DNA from: a virus
Taxonomy: Duplodnaviria; Caudoviricetes
Reading direction: 5' to 3' (one strand)
DNA: 64,000 bases
IMG/VR virus record: IMGVR_UViG_2974692648_000001
Location: 1-64,000 of that record
A program made the position numbers and the translations under genes. Positions 2,650 to 55,831 of the stretch are shown here, in pieces. Positions within the stretch are counted from its first letter, which is position 1, and every line of letters starts with the position of its first letter. The notes beneath the pieces were generated by a model, which saw only the letters and a program-made list of their open reading frames with translations, had not been told where the DNA came from and did not search any database.

Positions 2650-2690
2650 TAACTCCGTACGGGAAATCCCGTACGGAGTTACTTTTCTTT
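2650..2690. terminator. Bidirectional terminator between convergent genes
   Basis: 14-bp perfect stem taactccgtacggg/cccgtacggagtta, aaat loop, T-rich 3' flank. Confidence 0.85.
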
Positions 2691-3792
2691 ATACTCTTTT
2701 TTCAAGTTCGGTTCTCATCGCTAAGAAACGTTTTTCCAATAATGGATTTTTTATCTGCTGAGTAGTGAGACGAGTATCTTGTTGTAACCAGCGTTTGACA
2801 TGACTCTGTAAATAACCGTTATTAGTGTTAGTCACACGGTTATAATGAAATAAAACCGTAAGGACTTTCATATACGAGAAATTCCAAACCCAGCGAGATT
2901 TCAAATAAAGTTCGTACTGTCCTGGATTTTTCCATACCACGGGATTATCCAACGGGGTAGGTAATGTATCGAAGACCTCCAGGTCGTAAACTAAAGCATC
3001 CAGATTACGTATAGGTTTACGATTTAAGAGTTCGTCGTATTTCTCTATAGTTCGTTCTAATAAACGCTCTACGGAATTGATAGCGTAAGTAGTGCGAGGC
3101 ACACTTACTAAATCCTTAAACTCTTTACCAGTCACTATGTGTTCATAGAGACTATTGAGTACTACCAGTCGGTTGCCGAGTAACTGGGCGTTCATCAACG
3201 GAAACTTAGGTAACCATAAATGCGGCTTTGGATCAAACCCGTAGGTATTAGCATCTTTGAGGTAACGCCAATAAGCTACAGCTAAGGCACAGAAATCTAT
3301 CCCAATGATAGCAAACTTACCATCTGGGTCGTTAGTCAGTTTATCTTTAACCGGGCGGAAGTCTAGCTCAGTTGAGTCACTGTACACCGGAATAAAGGGA
3401 CACAAGTCCTCGGTGTTTGTAGCGAGGTAATCAGTAAAAGAGAACTGCGGTGGCAAAGATATTAGTAGCTCACGAAAGCCTTGCATATATAGTGCATTTT
3501 GGTGAAGTCGACCTGACCCGTAAACACCTACAGCTTTTGTTGAGCTAGCCCAACGTTCCCTTTTAAGACCAATAACTTGCTCTAATTCTTCGGAAGTCCA
3601 AGACGGGTCTATTTGCATAAACTCAACGAGTTGGACTAATGGATGTTCATTCGGTAAACGGTAACTGGTGTCTAACACCCGTTCCTTAAATTGTTCTTGG
3701 TTGAATCGACACATGCGAATTAAGTTACTTATATTAGTGTAGCTATAAGACGCATTACTCATCGAACTCAATCCCGTGAATAATGTTTGCAT
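2689..3792 (-). CDS. Conserved jumbo-phage protein, probably virion structural (phiKZ gp52-like by position)
   Basis: 367-aa ORF opposite-strand between DNA polymerase and chimallin. Late-type TATG motif upstream. Product inferred from gene order only. Confidence 0.55.
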   Translation of the reverse strand: MQTLFTGLSSMSNASYSYTNISNLIRMCRFNQEQFKERVLDTSYRLPNEHPLVQLVEFMQIDPSWTSEELEQVIGLKRERWASSTKAVGVYGSGRLHQNALYMQGFRELLISLPPQFSFTDYLATNTEDLCPFIPVYSDSTELDFRPVKDKLTNDPDGKFAIIGIDFCALAVAYWRYLKDANTYGFDPKPHLWLPKFPLMNAQLLGNRLVVLNSLYEHIVTGKEFKDLVSVPRTTYAINSVERLLERTIEKYDELLNRKPIRNLDALVYDLEVFDTLPTPLDNPVVWKNPGQYELYLKSRWVWNFSYMKVLTVLFHYNRVTNTNNGYLQSHVKRWLQQDTRLTTQQIKNPLLEKRFLAMRTELEKRV

Positions 3793-3876
3793 AAACTGAA
3801 TACCTATTATATGTAAATAAAACTTTCTCCGACCTTGCGGTTGGAGTGGATAGGACCGGTATTGAAATATTTAAGA

Positions 3877-3887
3877 CATAAAATCGA
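3877..3887 (-). promoter_or_regulatory. Putative late (nvRNAP) promoter TCGATTTTATG
   Basis: Identical 11-mer at 55821-55831 upstream of another structural gene. phiKZ late promoters use TATG. Confidence 0.5.
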
Positions 3888-4014: not shown

Positions 4015-6081
4015 ATGATCTCTGGTAAAAATGACTGGGATAACGTAGGCGACAATGATCAATCACCTGCAAACCCACAATCGCAAAATCCAACCAATCA
4101 CAAAGCTGCACAACAAGGAGCAGAAAAAATGTCATCAAACAAAAACCAATCTCTACTAGACTTCGCTAACGTTCTTGGTATGAACTCAATGATGGCCGGC
4201 GGTCGTAGCGTTCCTGTTGTGAACGATATCGTTAAGAAGTTGAATGACTTCCGAGAAGAGAAAGATAAGTCATCTATCAACCCTGCACTACAGCAAATCA
4301 TCCCGCAAGAAATCATTTCAATGGACACTAACTTGTCTCCAGTATTGCCGGGTATCATTCTTGCACGTCGTGTAGGTAACACACTGATCATCGCACCAGT
4401 GTTGTTCTCTAACCGTGAAATCGCTATCCAGCTGGAAGAGATTCACACTAACGGCACTATGGGTCAAAACGTACCTAGCAAAGTGCAAATCAAACAAGCA
4501 CCTAACCGTTACATGAGTAAAGAAGTGGTTCGTAACATCATCGAATCAATGAAGCTTCGTTACGCTAATGAAGGTGTGAACGACGTACAACTAATCACGT
4601 CTCGCGTTATCGACCTAGAATCTTACCAAACTCCTGAAAACAAAGAGATTGGTATGGCAGATCTTCTATCTAACGTTATCCTAGAAGAGTGGGAACGTGG
4701 CATGAAGACTACTCTAGCGAAGACTATGGTTAAGACTGGTACGGAACTGAAAACTCCGTTCATCGACAACAAAGGTCAAATCGATAAAAACGCTTACGGT
4801 CCAACTAAGTGTGCGACTGCTCGTATCGAGTCTATCAAAACTCAATCTGGCGCTCCAATCACTATCGACGGTGTACCATCTGGTGCTAACATGTTGGTTC
4901 AGCTACAAACTGCACCAAAAGAAGGTCAACAGTACAACGCAGATGCAGCTCGCGGTATCGTGAATGCTTACTCTAACGTTCTACTAGTTGGTGTTCCTTT
5001 TGCAGTTTACACTGCCCAACTACAAAACCGCCAAGTTCAACCGTTGTTCAACCCAATGATGAACGCCAACGACGCGTACCCTCACGGTTACCACCCACTG
5101 CAAGCAGTTGTAGTAATGGAAACTTCTCGTGCTCAAGCACAGATGGGTAACAACTCTGGTATCGCATCTTGGTTGATGGCGCTATACGCTAACATGACAG
5201 TGAACCACAACCACTTGTTCACTGAACCTCTACGTATGGCTAAGATTGGTGCTCGTGGTAACCTGTCTCACATCGAACGTCGTATCGATGACATGATCGC
5301 AGGCGCTCTACCTAAACGTGACGATAAACTGAAGATCAACGAAGCTCGTCTAAAAGACATGGACTTCACTTCATCTTGGATTCGTCGTAACATCGCTGAG
5401 CGTGCATCGTACGCTATCGACCTAGTAGAGTTTGGTAACGAAGCTGCACTACACAACTTCCTACTAAACCTAAGCGGTAACAACGAAGCTGCGACTGAAA
5501 ACAAACTGGTTATCGTTAAGATGATCGATGCAATCACTGGCGGTGAAGCGACTCGTCGCATTGCAGAGAACAAGCAATCTGGTAAAGGTTGGACTCCAGA
5601 GAAACAAGTTCTATGTCCATCTGCCATCATCAGCCCAGTTGGTACATTCAAGCACAACGGTCACCTACACTCTCTACAAGAAGTAGACGAGATGTTCCTA
5701 AGCCGTCTATGTCCAACTGACACTACCCCAATGGTTCAGTACCTACAAGCGGTATACGGTGACGGTGGTCAAACACCAGAAGCTGTACGTCGCTACCGCA
5801 TGACTACCATGCTTCCTACACTTATCAACGATGATGTAAACATCACTGGTACTTCACGTCGTCACTACGTGTCTCCAGAGTTTGCAGTATTCCTAGGTCA
5901 ATGTATGGATAAACTTGGTAACCTTAATGCATCTGGTACTATGGGTACGTTTGCTTCTAACGTTGCAATCTACGCTCCATCAGTTGAGTTTGCTGTACAA
6001 GCAGCAGCTGGCGCTTCTGGTGCGTACATGACCAACTCTGGTGGCATTGTAGGTAATAGCTCAGGCATTACTTACGCGTAA
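4015..6081 (+). CDS. chmA: Chimallin, major phage nuclear shell protein (phiKZ gp54-like)
   Basis: 688 aa, directly upstream of the nvRNAP beta-prime N-terminal gene as in phiKZ-like phages. Early promoter, strong codon bias, low-complexity N/C tails, own terminator. Inferred from synteny and size, not alignment. Confidence 0.75.
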   Translation: MISGKNDWDNVGDNDQSPANPQSQNPTNHKAAQQGAEKMSSNKNQSLLDFANVLGMNSMMAGGRSVPVVNDIVKKLNDFREEKDKSSINPALQQIIPQEIISMDTNLSPVLPGIILARRVGNTLIIAPVLFSNREIAIQLEEIHTNGTMGQNVPSKVQIKQAPNRYMSKEVVRNIIESMKLRYANEGVNDVQLITSRVIDLESYQTPENKEIGMADLLSNVILEEWERGMKTTLAKTMVKTGTELKTPFIDNKGQIDKNAYGPTKCATARIESIKTQSGAPITIDGVPSGANMLVQLQTAPKEGQQYNADAARGIVNAYSNVLLVGVPFAVYTAQLQNRQVQPLFNPMMNANDAYPHGYHPLQAVVVMETSRAQAQMGNNSGIASWLMALYANMTVNHNHLFTEPLRMAKIGARGNLSHIERRIDDMIAGALPKRDDKLKINEARLKDMDFTSSWIRRNIAERASYAIDLVEFGNEAALHNFLLNLSGNNEAATENKLVIVKMIDAITGGEATRRIAENKQSGKGWTPEKQVLCPSAIISPVGTFKHNGHLHSLQEVDEMFLSRLCPTDTTPMVQYLQAVYGDGGQTPEAVRRYRMTTMLPTLINDDVNITGTSRRHYVSPEFAVFLGQCMDKLGNLNASGTMGTFASNVAIYAPSVEFAVQAAAGASGAYMTNSGGIVGNSSGITYA

Positions 6082-15364: not shown

Positions 15365-15420
15365 TCACTTCACCTTTTTTATTATCATTAAACGTTTAAA
15401 CGAATTAAGGAAACCCATCC

Positions 15421-19474: not shown

Positions 19475-19500
19475 AATTGAGTTCTATATTACCTGAGTGT
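19475..19500 (+). promoter_or_regulatory. Putative early promoter
   Basis: AATTGAGTTCTATATTACCTGAGTGT, contains an exact TATATTAC. Confidence 0.7.
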
Positions 19501-23606: not shown

Positions 23607-25139
23607 ATGCGCTCTACTGTGACAGTGTGGAAGGGCGGGACTTACCTAAGAATAACAGACTACAAAGCGCCGTTCGTGCAAGACGTCATCATGCCGTTTT
23701 GTCGTCGGCGTTTATATCGTTTAGGTCAAGTACCCATTCCGGGGACAAGACAAAAGCGAACTGTAGTTACTCATTCTTTTGCTCGTTTGAATAATGACCG
23801 TAGTGAGTTTCGTATCTCCGCGGGTTTGCTTGATGACTTCATCCAGTTTATGGAAGGGGTTGGATATAAGCAGTCTCGTGTTAAGATTAAAGACGAACCG
23901 GTCATAAAAGGAAAGGACGTTGGGTTTAAATGGAAAGAGGGATGGGGAGCTCCTAGAGCGCATCAGGAAGACTGGTGTGAGTATCAGCTAGCCGAAGGTC
24001 CAGTAAAGGTTAACAACGCCCAAACAGGTGATGGGAAAACGTTTATGGCGACCCACACCATGGTGAACACCGGTAAGCGGACACTCATTACGTGTCTGCC
24101 TCGCTACGTGTCCATTTGGTTTGAGTCGTTAGGTAACTCGGTGGAGTTGAACCCTGAGGATATCATGTTGGTGGGTAATGGTAAGATCGAAGAAGCTGCC
24201 GAGACTATTAAAGAAGGTCGAGCGGATCCAAAGATCGTTATTCTTCCACTAACCCGTTATGATACCTACCTCAAGCGTGAGCGTGAAGAAGATATCCCGT
24301 GTTTAGATGAAGTTTTCTCTGACATGGAGATTGGCCTTCGTATCATGGATGAAGCACACGAAGATATTTATCGTGTCTATATGTCCATGTTGTTCGGTAA
24401 CTTCGAGAAAACCATCGCGCTTTCTGCGACATTAAAGGCAGACGATCCATTCGTTAACGATATCTATCGTTACGTTTATCCGCCCGCTATGCGACTCAAA
24501 GAACCTGAGTACAAAAAGTTCATCGACGTAATTGCTTACCATCATTACATCGACATGCAGAAATACCGTATCAACACCAAAGGTTTTGGTGGGTACTCTC
24601 ATGTTAAGTATGAACAAGCCATACTCAAATCACCTAAGTTGTATTCCCAGTACTTAGACTTGTGTAAACAAGCCTTTGAAGAATTCTACGTGAATGATCA
24701 TAAAGAAGGTCAGAAGTGTTTGTGGTTCTTTAGTACTGTGGAAATGGCAACTCGGATGAAGGAAGACTTTGAGGAAGCGTACCCAGATATGGATATCTGG
24801 AAGTTCACTAACACGGAGTCTAAGAACAAAGAAACGGAAATGTCCTACATGGAACACCAAGTTGTCTTTACTACACCTCAGTCTTGTGGTACCGGTAAGG
24901 ATATACCAGACTTGGCAGTAGCGTTCAGTCCGTATGCTTGCTCGTCTAGACAACGTAATGACCAGATGTTAGGTCGTACACGTCCGTTGAAGAACTACCC
25001 GGGCGATAATCCTAAATTTGTGTACTTTGTGTGCAGCTCTATTCCTAAACAAAAAGAGTACCACCAAAAACGCAAACAGTTATTTGCTGTGAAATCCAAA
25101 TCTCACCGCAACATCAATTCCTTCCACCACATTACTTAG
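23607..25139 (+). CDS. Superfamily 2 DExH helicase (phiKZ gp75-like)
   Basis: AQTGDGKT, MDEAH, LSAT, GTGKDIP, QMLGRTR. GGAGG RBS. Confidence 0.9.
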   Translation: MRSTVTVWKGGTYLRITDYKAPFVQDVIMPFCRRRLYRLGQVPIPGTRQKRTVVTHSFARLNNDRSEFRISAGLLDDFIQFMEGVGYKQSRVKIKDEPVIKGKDVGFKWKEGWGAPRAHQEDWCEYQLAEGPVKVNNAQTGDGKTFMATHTMVNTGKRTLITCLPRYVSIWFESLGNSVELNPEDIMLVGNGKIEEAAETIKEGRADPKIVILPLTRYDTYLKREREEDIPCLDEVFSDMEIGLRIMDEAHEDIYRVYMSMLFGNFEKTIALSATLKADDPFVNDIYRYVYPPAMRLKEPEYKKFIDVIAYHHYIDMQKYRINTKGFGGYSHVKYEQAILKSPKLYSQYLDLCKQAFEEFYVNDHKEGQKCLWFFSTVEMATRMKEDFEEAYPDMDIWKFTNTESKNKETEMSYMEHQVVFTTPQSCGTGKDIPDLAVAFSPYACSSRQRNDQMLGRTRPLKNYPGDNPKFVYFVCSSIPKQKEYHQKRKQLFAVKSKSHRNINSFHHIT

Positions 25140-25537: not shown

Positions 25538-25981
25538 ATGACGTCCAAGGATAATACCACCAAAAGTATTTTTGTAAACATTGATAATCAATGGGGTTAC
25601 CCCGACGATGCTTTCGATGCTGTTTTAGATCATCTTTGTTCGTTATTAATTTCCACCAAAATGAACCCGGAAGAGATCCATGAAGATCTAGGAATAGCAG
25701 TGGATTCGGTCTTGGAACTCTACGACCCAAGATATCACGAGGACATAAGTGATTATGCCGTCTTAGCAGATATAGAGAATCGATATTTTGAAACCCTAGA
25801 TAACGCTAAGAATCTACTTGACATCGTGTTGGGGGACCATCAAGAACTTCGCTCTGTTTATATGTGTAATATAAAGGATGTTGAAGTCGTAAAAATTTCA
25901 GATCAATGGGGGTTGGTAAGAATTGTGATCAACCCGCCTGGAGCTGCCCTATGGAATCAACCAACAACCCAAGGTACTTAA
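25538..25981 (+). CDS. Hypothetical acidic protein
   Basis: 147 aa, AGGA RBS. Confidence 0.7.
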   Translation: MTSKDNTTKSIFVNIDNQWGYPDDAFDAVLDHLCSLLISTKMNPEEIHEDLGIAVDSVLELYDPRYHEDISDYAVLADIENRYFETLDNAKNLLDIVLGDHQELRSVYMCNIKDVEVVKISDQWGLVRIVINPPGAALWNQPTTQGT

Positions 25982-26361
25982 CGGTACCTTTCTTTTATTT
26001 GTTACCCAATAACGAACACATCTCACATGAGTGTTATCTGCGAGCGATAGAAGTTGCTTTACATGATATCTTTGTGTTCGGTTCATACCAACCAACCATT
26101 TTATCCGGTGTTGTCAGTACCGTGATGGACGAATACGAAGGCATGCACGGACCTGTGTCCTACAGCAATGCTTTTGATGAAACCTACGGTGGGTTAAATG
26201 CTTTCTTGGAGGACTTCATCACCAGTCCCCAGAACTATGACTCTATCAACACTTTAACTACTTTACACGGTATGGGGGAAATCCACACCATCCAAACTTC
26301 GCAAAACTACGCTAACATTATATTGTTAGTAAATTCCCCACTATCGTTAATCAACTCATAA
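25951..26361 (+). CDS. Hypothetical protein
   Basis: Start moved to ATG 25951 (GGAG RBS). Confidence 0.65.
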   Translation: MESTNNPRYLTVPFFYLLPNNEHISHECYLRAIEVALHDIFVFGSYQPTILSGVVSTVMDEYEGMHGPVSYSNAFDETYGGLNAFLEDFITSPQNYDSINTLTTLHGMGEIHTIQTSQNYANIILLVNSPLSLINS

Positions 26362-26380
26362 TTAAAAAAGGAACCATCCC

Positions 26381-26821
26381 ATGCAATACAACCTAATGGG
26401 CGAACCATCAGCACTAGCTAAAGTTAACGAAATTCTAACTTACGACACTCAAACTGCTTTCTTCCTTATGGTGTTAGAAGAGCTGGCTAACAAACATCGT
26501 ACTGATCTAGCTGGTCCACCGCCTATTGAAGAAGGTGAAGATTACGACCCAGAGCAAGACAATGAAACTCGAATTGAAGAGTTCGCTGAACGTGTGCTGG
26601 GCGAGTGTCCGGAAGATCGTACTGAAGAAGAACATCAGTCAATGTTAAAGTCACTGACAGCAGACATTCTAGACTTGTTCGAATTAGTTACGGATGCTTT
26701 CCTAAGCAACCCGGATAACTCAGATCAGATCAACGTTCTAGCTAACCAAGACTTTGCAGTGCCTCGTGACTTCACTTGGACTACTGGTCAGAATGGTGGC
26801 TTCGTGTTTATCTTTAAATAA
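26381..26821 (+). CDS. Hypothetical acidic protein
   Basis: 146 aa, AAGGA RBS, strong codon bias. Confidence 0.75.
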   Translation: MQYNLMGEPSALAKVNEILTYDTQTAFFLMVLEELANKHRTDLAGPPPIEEGEDYDPEQDNETRIEEFAERVLGECPEDRTEEEHQSMLKSLTADILDLFELVTDAFLSNPDNSDQINVLANQDFAVPRDFTWTTGQNGGFVFIFK

Positions 26822-26831
26822 CGAACGCATA

Positions 26832-26886
26832 TATAACTCCGTACTCCCTAGGGAGTACGGAGTTATAACTGTTCTTGTTTTTTTTT
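26832..26886 (+). terminator. Terminator formed by a perfect 36-bp palindrome
   Basis: tataactccgtactccct|agggagtacggagttata (26832-26867), then a spacer and T9. Confidence 0.8.
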
Positions 26887-26892
26887 CTATCT

Positions 26893-26980
26893 AAAAAAGA
26901 GGGGGCGCTGCCTGCCCCCAAACATCCCTACCAAACATTAGGTTAAGGAACCATCAGAAAGAAAAAGACACCAAAGTGCC
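26893..26980 (-). ncRNA. Candidate late small RNA (~88 nt) with an anti-SD segment
   Basis: Late-type motif ACGATTATATG ends at the putative +1 G26980. 5' hairpin GGCAC-UUUG-GUGUC, U-rich linker with GAUGGUUCCUUAA, terminator GGGGGC/GCCCCC-UCUUUUUU. Confidence 0.45.
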
Positions 26981-26998
26981 ATATAATCGTTATCTGGT

Positions 26999-28300
26999 TT
27001 ATTCAAAGAGTTCTTGGAGAGTATATGTCTTGACAGACATCGAACTCGTATGCATGCCTTTCATTCTTTGTAGCATGAAACCTGTAGCAATGTCCGAACA
27101 TTCCATTGATAGTGCGTCAGCTGCGTCTGAGAGTGCGTCACCCACACATACCTTACAGTAGTTACCTTCTGGTGTTACACAGGTGTTAGGGGTTCGGAAC
27201 TTAATGTCACGACCAATTAAGTTTTTCTCCGTACCAGTCCAACGTTTCAACGAACCACCTTCTCCTAATATGTAGTAAGAACCTGTCCACATTTTAACCT
27301 GATCTTCGGTAATGTGAACTGACTCATAAACCTTAGACTTACAATCATCTTCAGGAATAGTAATACGGGATGTCAAACGTTGGATGTCCTTAACCGCTGC
27401 ACCACCTTCACCAGTTGCTTTACCGCGGTCATAAGAACCCGCAATCGCTGTGTTGATGTATTGGTGTAGGTGATCCATATCCCAACCATCATCGAGCGAT
27501 TTATGCAAGAATGTCCATTCACCAGTGTTCCAGTCTTGTTCAGCACCGAAAGCAATGAACATACGTTTACGGGCGTTATCAATAAACTTCTTATTGATAA
27601 AGAAGTCTTTAGAATCACCCTTGAGCTGGATCTCCATGTCCTTAGCAACCAGCTGGTCGATAATCCACGCTGCTTTAATCGGGTCATGAATAGCGTCAGG
27701 GTTCTCTTTAAGGAGTTTGGCTTTCAGTTCCAACAGTTCTTTATCAACAGTCAATGCTTGGATAGATGCCGCTTTACAGAAGACGTTGTTTAAACCCATC
27801 AGGTAATTGAACTGCTTAGTCACCTTATGACAATCATCAACACTACACTTACCCGGAGGAACTGTTTCACCTTCTTCAGGGTTATCTACCATCACCTCAC
27901 TAATGATGCGCTTAACGTCACCCGCATTCATTACTTTATTGTGGTAAGGTACAGTATCCTTTAATGCCTCATAAAACACCACACGGTTTACCAACAACAA
28001 CCCCATGGTGGTTTCTAGCTCTCCTTCGACTCTAGGATCAAAGTTAGAGTCTATGGTGATGCGTTCGTCCTTATAACAAAAAGGTGCGCTTAAATCGCCT
28101 TCTACGCGCTCTGTCGTGCCATCGTCTTTATAGAAGTAAAACCCTTCCCCGTCTCGGTAAAGTGCGTACTTGATCTTACTCAGAATACGGGCAGTTTCCT
28201 CGTCATCTGATAACTTCGTAAAGACGCTAAGCAACCATGCTTTTTTCTGATAACAGCGAGATTGAAAACAGAGTTTAAGGTACTCATGCTTCGTAATCAT
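26999..28300 (-). CDS. Virion RNAP beta-prime C-terminal subunit (phiKZ gp80-like)
   Basis: SLDDGW, GSYDRGKATGEGG (bridge helix), DDCKS, RTPNTC..YCKVCVG, MKGMH (trigger loop). Confidence 0.85.
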   Translation of the reverse strand: MITKHEYLKLCFQSRCYQKKAWLLSVFTKLSDDEETARILSKIKYALYRDGEGFYFYKDDGTTERVEGDLSAPFCYKDERITIDSNFDPRVEGELETTMGLLLVNRVVFYEALKDTVPYHNKVMNAGDVKRIISEVMVDNPEEGETVPPGKCSVDDCHKVTKQFNYLMGLNNVFCKAASIQALTVDKELLELKAKLLKENPDAIHDPIKAAWIIDQLVAKDMEIQLKGDSKDFFINKKFIDNARKRMFIAFGAEQDWNTGEWTFLHKSLDDGWDMDHLHQYINTAIAGSYDRGKATGEGGAAVKDIQRLTSRITIPEDDCKSKVYESVHITEDQVKMWTGSYYILGEGGSLKRWTGTEKNLIGRDIKFRTPNTCVTPEGNYCKVCVGDALSDAADALSMECSDIATGFMLQRMKGMHTSSMSVKTYTLQELFE

Positions 28301-29230: not shown

Positions 29231-29995
29231 ATGCCAAAAATTAGTAAGCATAAGCAGGCAAAACGTAAACAACGTCAACGTAATGTGCAGGCTTCTAAAT
29301 CTAAACAACGCTTACAAGAAGCAAGAGAAAAACGTCAGTCAAAGGACCGACAACTTCTACAACAGCTCAATGACACTCTTGGTGGCGAACACGCCATGAG
29401 TGATGAAATGAAGAAAGAAGCAAAAGAAAAATTCTGGAAAGTGTTCAGTACATTACCTCCTCAGTTACAAAAAGACGCTATGGAGTCTTTTGAAAAAGAA
29501 GGCGGTACAGTAACACCAATGGACTTGGATGGTATGACTAACCTGCTTTGTGAAGGTCTGAACCACTACATCCGTCCACACGCTCTCGTTGCGACCCTAC
29601 ACTCTTTGGTAGATCAAGAGAAACTTGTATTAACTGAAGAGCTTACTGCTAAGATGGATGCGCTAGACGCAGCCGTACTAAAATACATTGGTAACGCGAC
29701 GGCTATACTGGAAGCTTTCGATACCATCCGCGGGCTCGACGAAGAGTTACAACACCAAGCTATTCTGGATAACGAAGTCCTGGGCGAACTGTTAATCCCG
29801 ACTCTGTTAAGTTATCAAGAAGACAGCGAAGAGATCATCTCTCCGTTGATTGAGTTGTCAGAACCACACACAGAACTTATCAACGACGATATCAAGTTCG
29901 TCGGTGAAATCCTAGGTAAAACTAACCTCTATGAAGTTTCTCGTGAAATCCACTTGGAGCGTGTAGAAGAACTGGTGAAAGTAAAAGGTGAATAA
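29231..29995 (+). CDS. Hypothetical protein with K/R/Q-rich N-terminus
   Basis: 254 aa, AAGGA RBS. Confidence 0.7.
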   Translation: MPKISKHKQAKRKQRQRNVQASKSKQRLQEAREKRQSKDRQLLQQLNDTLGGEHAMSDEMKKEAKEKFWKVFSTLPPQLQKDAMESFEKEGGTVTPMDLDGMTNLLCEGLNHYIRPHALVATLHSLVDQEKLVLTEELTAKMDALDAAVLKYIGNATAILEAFDTIRGLDEELQHQAILDNEVLGELLIPTLLSYQEDSEEIISPLIELSEPHTELINDDIKFVGEILGKTNLYEVSREIHLERVEELVKVKGE

Positions 29996-32100: not shown

Positions 32101-32141
32101 CACAATTCTATGCTAATCGTAAACAACCACGAGGTATTATC

Positions 32142-51759: not shown

Positions 51760-51809
51760 GTATTGTATGTGAGCTCGTCTCTTCTAACGTGGTATTGCCG
51801 TAATTATAT

Positions 51810-51927
51810 GTAGAATACTATAGTACTGTAGTGCTACACCTTTCGGGATTGCATGCTGCGGTCCCGTTTAGAAAATTTAATTAAATCTTCTAGTCAAAAC
51901 GACTAAATATATTAAAGGAACATTGTT
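51810..51927 (+). promoter_or_regulatory. Structured 5' leader after a late TATG motif
   Basis: TATG at 51807-51810, then tandem hairpins (51810-51837, 51844-51866, 51869-51892, 51891-51905), several with G-U pairs. Confidence 0.5.
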
Positions 51928-55820: not shown

Positions 55821-55831
55821 TCGATTTTATG
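55821..55831 (+). promoter_or_regulatory. Putative late promoter TCGATTTTATG
   Basis: Same 11-mer as 3887-3877 (minus). Lies between a terminator and a structural operon. Confidence 0.5.

Follow-up and report, generated by a model that had tools for sequence, protein, structure and literature searches.

The stretch of DNA analyzed here (hereafter the window) comprises positions 1 to 64,000 of IMG/VR record IMGVR_UViG_2974692648_000001 and represents the first 64 kb of a 237,509-bp genome of a Vibrio jumbo phage of the Gorgonvirinae. The subject of the analysis is a candidate small-RNA element on the minus strand, located where two convergent genes leave a 177-nt gap (26822-26998) between them. 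Over this locus, the phage is 89% identical to Vibrio phage 2 TSL-2019; its remoter relatives—phiKT1019, Aphrodite1, USC-1, 5 TSL-2019, pTD1, VP4B, and phiKT1028—are likewise Gorgonvirinae Vibrio jumbo phages. Seven relatives keep the two convergent genes in synteny, each with a gap of 171-237 nt, and the element region carries no annotation in the 2 TSL-2019 records. Gene calls are our own crude open reading frame (ORF) calls, made from the first ATG with greedy selection by length. The features of the locus, including an RNA polymerase (RNAP) gene, a ribosome-binding site (RBS), and three predicted hairpins (P1-P3), are as follows:

26999..28300, minus strand: RNAP beta/beta'-like subunit gene, 433 aa (PHROG 2962, "RNA polymerase beta subunit", E = 1.3e-156)
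26980..26987, minus strand: promoter-like motif ATTATATG; it ends in the four bases TATG, whose G at 26980 is the putative +1
26967..26980, minus strand: P1, a 5-bp hairpin (GGCAC UUUG GUGUC) from the putative +1 in predicted folds; helix 1 is 100% paired
26950..26966, minus strand: linker between P1 and P2, with the conserved core UUUCUGAUGG at 26960-26951, from the alignment and folds
26945..26955, minus strand: GAUGGUUCCUU, proposed earlier as a "seed"; its 3' part, UCCUU, is specific to the lineage and belongs to the 5' arm of P2
26925..26949, minus strand: P2 hairpin (UCCUUA.CC / GG UAGGGA), with strong covariation
26893..26919, minus strand: P3, a GC hairpin (6 GC pairs) followed by the U-tail TCTTTTTT, an intrinsic terminator present in eight of eight genomes
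26867..26892, no strand assigned: a conserved A-run on the minus strand, which reads on the plus strand as a T-run after the palindrome
26833..26866, no strand assigned: palindromic bidirectional terminator, one of six ATAACYYC...GRRGTTAT palindromes in the genome
26381..26821, plus strand: convergent neighbor gene for a 146-aa acidic protein of unknown function (PHROG 27030, E = 1.3e-47)
26368..26378, plus strand: AAGGAACCATC, in the RBS of ORF 26381-26821, complementary to small-RNA nt 26-36; the pairing is not conserved

An earlier reading made from the letters alone (the sequence-only reading) had described the element as a late small RNA carrying an anti-Shine-Dalgarno (anti-SD) seed. The unit proper runs for 88 nt, from 26980 to 26893, and rereading the sequence recovered all of the minus-strand features on which that description drew: a late-type motif, ACGATTATATG, at 26990-26980, ending in TATG at the 5' end of the unit; a hairpin, GGCACUUUGGUGUC, at 26980-26967, starting at the putative +1; a U/C-rich stretch with GAUGGUUCCUU at 26955-26945; a dedicated intrinsic terminator, comprising the GC hairpin GGGGGCAGGCAGCGCCCCC and UCUUUUUU, at 26919-26893; and the palindrome ATAACTCCGTACTCCCTAGGGAGTACGGAGTTAT at 26866-26833, beginning 26 nt past the U-tail. 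P3 and its U-tail form an intrinsic terminator for the small unit and, in this genus, probably for the RNAP mRNA as well; the T-run at 26867..26892 serves as the tail in the terminator of the plus-strand gene. On the minus strand, the RNAP-beta'-like ORF has its stop codon at 27001-26999; the label of virion RNAP that had been given to this gene is reasonable, as its homologs in the OBP, N1M2, SXP01, and ZPAH34 records are annotated as virion-associated RNAP beta'.

The sequence-only reading had proposed looking for conservation in relatives, and the unit is indeed kept, with covariation, in all eight Gorgonvirinae genomes compared, at lengths of 83-93 nt. The minus-strand alignment has a shared layout: an invariant ATTATATG, a hairpin from its G, UUUCUGAUGG, a second hairpin whose arms differ between lineages, and a GC hairpin with a U-run. 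Predicted folds have the same three-hairpin shape in each of the eight sequences, with a short AU-rich spacer preceding the terminator hairpin. Within the linker, the core UUUYUGAUGG is kept in eight of eight genomes (reading UUUUUGAUGG in Aphrodite1 and USC-1), and the linker is wholly unpaired in the minimum-energy fold of four of the eight homologs. By these models, the core would offer the conserved and accessible seed expected of a small RNA that base-pairs in trans. The phage's own genome has a single copy of the element.

When a covariance model was built on just two sequences, those from the window and 2 TSL-2019, it found the other six homologs at E-values of 3e-5 to 0.024 in 90 kb, together with one spurious match at E = 0.77. 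Standard pairs fill 94.4% of 143 pair cells, as compared with 79.6% in shuffled controls, of which 0 of 500 score as high, in an alignment that was fitted to the model's structure and so favors it. Both sides have changed in 11 of the 19 pairs, as compared with at most three when partners are slid by one to three columns; as these slid-partner controls argue, the covariation signal is real. Helix 2 (P2) has both-side changes in six of six pairs, with 95.3% of its cells paired; helix 4 (P3) has them in three of six, and the innermost pair of P1 (pair 5) is C-G in four sequences and U-A in four. Because 12 G-U/U-G cells would become A-C mismatches on the plus strand, the structure belongs to the minus-strand RNA. 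Though no more than eight genomes from about six lineages were compared, chance falls well short of explaining the comparative evidence, and the locus is with high confidence a conserved, structured minus-strand RNA element.

In five remoter chimalliviruses (Miami, pEt-SU, SXP01, D6, and OBP), an eight-sequence model found no match at E < 0.1, and its single weak match (E = 0.114) lies elsewhere in D6; their orthologous RNAP gene is followed by only 45-59 nt. The best minus-strand match to Rfam over the element was AniS, with 17.9 bits where the family's gathering score is 50 (E = 1.3), and all 19 Rfam matches listed fall far under the gathering threshold. ARAGORN identified no tRNA or tmRNA genes in 26000-27500. 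A blastn search of the 111-nt element against phages returned 2 TSL-2019 as its sole true match, and 24-nt matches to T5-like tRNA-Leu (E = 4) were taken as chance. A pattern scan of viral contigs identified 40 loci, five of them true homologs and all known isolates; the other 35 were rejected as chance matches, mostly within coding sequence, and protein-based scans of viral contigs gave the same five isolates. A metagenome scan that used the RNAP alignment returned 278 pattern matches with no relative among them, and a DNA pattern joining the palindrome and the core had no matches. The possibility of a small peptide was also rejected: the 14-codon ORF that begins at the ATG of ATTATATG in the window is not conserved, reading M-T-stop in pTD1 and M-T-L-stop in Aphrodite1.

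The 8-mer ATTATATG stands directly before P1 without variation in eight of eight genomes. The exact word has five copies in its own genome, all five intergenic, where intergenic sequence makes up only 5.9% of the genome by our ORF calls; across six genomes, 25 of 26 copies are intergenic, and in the five relatives all 21 copies lie outside ORFs of at least 80 aa, at orthologous sites. Apart from the small-RNA element, the sites are before chimallin (window 3806), before the internal head protein (51803), and at genome positions 223728 and 229349. Position 4 of the word is free, and the wider family can be written as ATTNTATG, which across six genomes has 81 intergenic and 73 coding copies, as compared with 24 and 134 for the reversed control word. 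Of the 81 intergenic copies, 69 point at a codirectional gene downstream. Divergent gaps account for 16 of the 81, none pointing away from the genes on both sides; no same-strand gene lies upstream there to supply a transcript for processing. In the phage's own genome, the genes downstream of ATTNTATG include those for the major head, minor tail, internal head, and virion structural proteins and chimallin, which the word precedes by 24-202 nt, as well as PhuZ. The earlier claim of a late-type motif is in this respect borne out, ATTATATG being a member of a promoter-like family upstream of structural genes.

The late promoter of the phiKZ non-virion RNAP (nvRNAP) is described as having the full consensus T(-3)ATG(+1), with transcription starting at the G (PMC7598289, PMC12809450). 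The Gorgonvirinae motif shares these traits, namely a terminal TATG, a putative start at G, and a position upstream of late genes. These data suggest that ATTNTATG is likely the middle/late promoter word of the Gorgonvirinae and that the G at 26980 is the likely start. The distance from ATTATATG to the stop codon of the RNAP gene is 2-11 nt in Aphroditevirus and ~50-60 nt in three Tidunavirus genomes; because the motif adjoins P1 despite this variation, it is tied to the 5' end of the RNA and not to the upstream gene. On the strength of motif statistics and the phiKZ analogy, we consider it likely that the element has its own promoter.

Several further observations concern these motifs. The window contains ATTNTATG copies at 3806-3813 (+), 3877-3884 (-), 32105-32112 (+), 51762-51769 (+), 51803-51810 (+), and 55824-55831 (+), two copies standing back to back in the divergent gap between the virion structural gene 2689-3792 and chimallin (4015-6081). 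Many predicted transcripts from ATTNTATG copies start with a hairpin at +1 or +2. At genome 223728-224160 and 229349-229590, ATTATATG is followed by a long conserved noncoding stretch; the former holds iteron-like direct repeats (GGGGCAAGGTGATAG twice and GGGTGTCAAGGTT twice), and the first ~70 nt of the latter are nearly identical across genera. Another word, TATATTAC, is probably an early-type promoter word and is what we take to be the phiKZ early promoter consensus. All eight of its copies are intergenic by our calls, six of them 48-75 nt before start codons; one copy (25873, -) lies inside an annotated coding sequence, 25538-25981, that is absent from those calls. The word is usually preceded by TC and followed by nnnnGTG, and occurs in the window at 19485-19492 (+) and at seven other genome sites. 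The copy at 19485 is the nearest recognizable same-strand promoter-like motif for the neighbor gene 26381-26821, a putative early gene in the sequence-only reading, and stands 6.9 kb upstream of it. A variant, TATATAAC, lies ~90 nt before chimallin, which would in that case carry promoters of two types.

The same junction could be read as no more than the structured 3' untranslated region (3' UTR) of the mRNA for the virion-RNAP subunit, serving as tandem terminators or to stabilize the message, with no promoter of its own and with any small RNA arising by processing. Such an mRNA must enter the element in Aphroditevirus, where 2-11 nt separate stop codon and motif; with no strong hairpin before the motif, the element is in that genus also part of the RNAP mRNA 3' UTR. 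P1 with its U/C-run and P3 are both terminator-like, and late ncRNAs (noncoding RNAs) described for PAK_P3 derive from 3' UTRs without a transcription start (PMC10914365). However, the invariant ATTATATG adjoins P1 while its distance from the stop codon ranges from 2 to ~60 nt, and the motif family also occurs in divergent gaps and before structural genes. The UUUCUGAUGG linker and the covarying P2 exceed the needs of a terminator, and other junctions manage with the palindrome alone. The element was not assigned to the class of plain terminators or 3' UTRs, as it has, in addition to a terminator, an invariant 8-mer, a 10-nt linker core, and two further covarying hairpins. We regard an origin as mere 3' UTR as unlikely.

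The comparison with other junctions rests on a family of six near-identical palindromic hairpins (ATAACTCC..TAC..GGAGTTAT), at 26833-26866 in the window and at genome 86164, 98699, 130728, 149563, and 217698. The sequence of the palindrome is conserved across genera in addition to its structure, and five of the six copies lie at convergent gene junctions. At three of these, the flanking genes end 2-13 nt away and the palindrome stands alone; at the other two, the minus-strand gene is 132 nt (the small-RNA locus) and 137 nt away, and the extra space at both holds a ATTNTATG word followed by structured, conserved RNA-like sequence.

The second of these wide junctions, at genome ~217732-217849 (-) and outside the window, contains a similarly built module. 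A thymidylate-kinase-like gene ends there, and 20 nt past its stop codon stands ATTTTATG. Next come a hairpin at +1 and GAUAACUCCUCU, which is conserved, then a covarying hairpin whose loop reads UUGGCG, and finally the palindromic terminator at 217698-217731. GAUAACUCCUCU, taken to be single-stranded, repeats the word found in the 5' arm of the palindromic terminators of this phage. The module was identified in five of six genomes (the phage's own, phiKT1019, Aphrodite1, pTD1, and phiKT1028); a regular-expression search did not match it in VP4B, whose record holds 167 N.

The sequence-only reading had gone further in proposing a mechanism: a late small RNA whose anti-SD seed, GAUGGUUCCUU, would block the RBS at 26368-26378 along with other AAGGAA-type RBSs of early or host genes. 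The exact 11-nt complement, AAGGAACCATC, is present at 26368-26378, 3 nt before the ATG of ORF 26381-26821. The shorter RBS matches that had been listed stood in part: TTAAGGAA is found at 15405, while 32865 and 62383 are ATG start codons and not match positions. Additionally, a second long match exists in TTAAGGAACCAT at genome 228553-228564 (+), a 12-nt exact complement of small-RNA nt 27-38 that lies in the RBS of gene 228566-229324 (PHROG 20775, function unknown). Two RBS matches of at least 11 nt, as observed at 26368 and 228553, occur in only 2.2% of 500 dinucleotide shuffles and 3.8% of 500 trials that keep the TTCCTT core, and phiKT1019 retains a 4+4-bp pairing with one bulge at the same neighbor RBS when aligned by hand; these points favor a seed of this kind.

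Other results oppose it. One match of at least 11 nt to some RBS zone among 210 called genes is obtained by chance in 14.4% of the shuffles and 17.4% of the core-keeping trials, so that the significance attached to the 11/11 match does not hold. Nor is the seed conserved: UUCCUU is present only in the window and 2 TSL-2019 and is replaced elsewhere by UGUUGC, GUUGUU, UUGUCC, or UUGUUU, which make up the covarying 5' arm of P2 in those genomes. GAUGGUUCCUU takes in GAUGG, with which the conserved core ends, together with UCCUU from the 5' arm of P2; 5 of its 11 nt thus lie within a stem, UCCUU covarying with its partner UAGGGA. The sequence-only reading had itself cautioned that some late genes share such RBSs; AAGGAA occurs in 27 of 210 start regions, late genes among them. 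Pairing with the neighbor RBS, in a duplex-energy check, is strong (-17.9 kcal/mol) only in the window lineage. Duplexes of linker and neighbor start over six lineages average -11.8 kcal/mol for cognate and -11.4 kcal/mol for noncognate combinations, and the neighbor ranks among the top 5% of start regions in the window only, as compared with 0.14-0.83 in the other five genomes. The start region of 228566-229324 ranks at 0.01 in the window and at 0.09-0.74 in its orthologs from three relatives, and the TTAAGGAACCAT match is therefore not conserved; no ortholog of this gene was found in VP4B or phiKT1028. Judged from these sequence comparisons, the 11-mer match is a product of chance or of recent lineage-specific acquisition and not a conserved function, and the mechanism as first proposed appears improbable. 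The idea may still hold in a weaker, hypothetical form, in which the pyrimidine run of the conserved (C)CUUUCUGAUGG could pair with purine-rich start regions.

Complements of the core of at least 8 nt are scattered. One, inside the RNAP gene (+49, codons CYQKKA) in four of six genomes, was rejected as a target because a conserved protein motif explains it. Elsewhere, TTTCTGATGGTTCTTTAACC at genome 207236-207255 (+), within a 2550-aa ORF, is a 19/20 same-sense match to small-RNA nt 21-40; being of the same sense, on the opposite coding strand, it was likewise rejected as a target. The codons at 207236 read FSDGSLT, and the 14-codon ORF from the ATG of ATTATATG in the window ends ...LSDGSLT.

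Alternatively, the element may act through protein, as a decoy or scaffold whose linker and loops are bound by Hfq, ProQ, or a phage nuclear RNA-binding protein. A search of phage start regions turned up no conserved complementary target, and the genome has another, similarly built module; both points would agree with a protein-binding RNA. The double hairpin, AU-rich spacer, and 3' U-tail resemble what we take to be the Hfq-binding module of bacterial small RNAs. However, a conserved linear core of 10 nt equally resembles a base-pairing seed, and we consider protein binding as the element's role to be rather doubtful.

Taken together, we favor the interpretation that the locus is a real, independently transcribed small RNA gene conserved in the Gorgonvirinae (Aphroditevirus, Tidunavirus), a candidate to which we assign a probability of roughly 0.6 based on its sequence and conservation. 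The phage nvRNAP would start at the G of ATTATATG, the strongest form of ATTNTATG, a word also found before the structural, chimallin, and PhuZ genes; this would imply middle or late timing. Transcription would stop at the P3 hairpin and U-tail, yielding an RNA of 83-93 nt. In the weakest step, the RNA would act in trans via its conserved pyrimidine-rich and GAUGG linker, which may pair with purine-rich mRNA regions or bind a protein. A trans-acting regulatory role of this kind is conceivable, at somewhat less than even odds.

Several considerations weigh against a small RNA gene, in addition to the fitted pair-count alignment and the modest number of lineages. The single-sequence fold is unexceptional (z = -1.56), with 18 of 200 shuffles folding as well. 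In the full-length folds of the other four homologs, the core is partly engaged in weak alternative pairs. A terminator scan flags P1, at the 5' end, as terminator-like along with the P3 hairpin and the palindrome, and P1 with the U/C-rich run resembles a weak terminator of the upstream gene. The promoter call derives from motif statistics and the analogy with phiKZ, and ATTATATG could instead mark an RNA processing site. A search of sequencing runs returned no RNA run that contains the region; one run of unknown kind had 0.37 of its sequence words. Lastly, a comparative scan of ~210 start regions in each of six genomes, in which orthologous start regions are not independent samples, identified no conserved target; its best candidates, 106172-107410 and 29231-29995, merely have purine-rich RBSs.

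More speculatively, the Gorgonvirinae may carry a set of at least two nvRNAP-driven regulatory RNAs at convergent junctions, which, late in infection, would exit the phage nucleus to act in trans, the GAUGG/CU-rich seed of the window RNA being directed at purine-rich start regions of phage or host mRNAs; we offer this only tentatively. If it were true, the chimallivirus would have a phage-encoded riboregulator of its temporal program.

Elsewhere in the window, ORF 23607-25139 (+) matches a PHROG named DNA helicase (E = 2.1e-49) and is labeled terminase large subunit in related records, and as intein-containing in one note; these names conflict.

As a candidate, the element is conserved and has structural support, and it combines a defined 5' motif with a conserved core and a terminator; the Vibrio phages that carry it are under study as agents against Vibrio disease in aquaculture. 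Its analysis has also yielded a predictable promoter word for the subfamily, ATTNTATG, and a second candidate RNA elsewhere in the genome. If it is expressed as proposed, it would provide a tractable case for the exit of ncRNA from the phage nucleus, regulation by ncRNA, and promoter recognition by the nvRNAP. Our search of titles and abstracts found no transcriptome or small-RNA report for the Gorgonvirinae. Small RNAs of nucleus-forming jumbo phages are, in the reports cited here, sequencing-derived candidates only, with no function given (PMC10914365, PMC11512511, PMC8244752). Late promoters of the phiKZ type are considered too short for prediction.

Bacterial small RNAs embedded in 3' UTRs with their own promoter (type I), such as DapZ and MicL, provide one point of comparison. 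Like these, the element lies at the 3' end of a same-strand gene, would share its terminator with the mRNA, and would start at or after the stop codon; unlike these, its promoter would be read by a phage multisubunit RNAP and not through a host sigma factor. With respect to the phiKZ nvRNAP late promoter, the likeness is a terminal TATG in the motif, with conserved RNA structure starting at the G (PMC7598289, PMC12809450), and the conserved hairpins downstream of the start accord with the importance reported for the downstream region of the phiKZ promoter. The middle and late promoters of phiKZ are held, in a review, to be unpredictable by bioinformatics (PMC7598289 / PMC12809450); unlike these, the Gorgonvirinae word is longer (ATTNTATG, with ATTATATG at five sites) and detectable by sequence statistics alone.

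Among phage ncRNAs, PAK_P3 ncRNA1 and ncRNA2 are described as abundant late ncRNAs located after a gene 3' end, processing products without a transcription start (PMC10914365). The element shares their position after a gene 3' end; it differs in coming from an unrelated phage, in having no sequence likeness that we found, and in having a putative start motif of its own. In phiKZ, dRNA-seq predicted one 75-nt small RNA that a northern blot is reported not to have confirmed, and the authors of that study proposed that small RNAs of phages would appear late (PMC8244752). ONT-cappable-seq of phiKZ and 201phi2-1 is reported to have yielded ncRNA candidates bounded by a phage promoter and a terminator, some of them conserved across genera, including one upstream of a tail gene (PMC11512511, PMC10914365). 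As with these candidates, the element is a short unit of a nucleus-forming jumbo phage with a phage promoter-like motif and a nearby terminator. However, the phiKZ and 201phi2-1 ncRNAs are described as mostly 5'-UTR-derived, as with one upstream of the tail gene gp182/gp277, whereas the window element follows a virion-RNAP gene at a convergent junction, is confined to the Gorgonvirinae, with no match in five other chimalliviruses, and is known from sequence alone. What the element shares with the known jumbo-phage ncRNAs is its kind, and not its sequence, place, or taxon.

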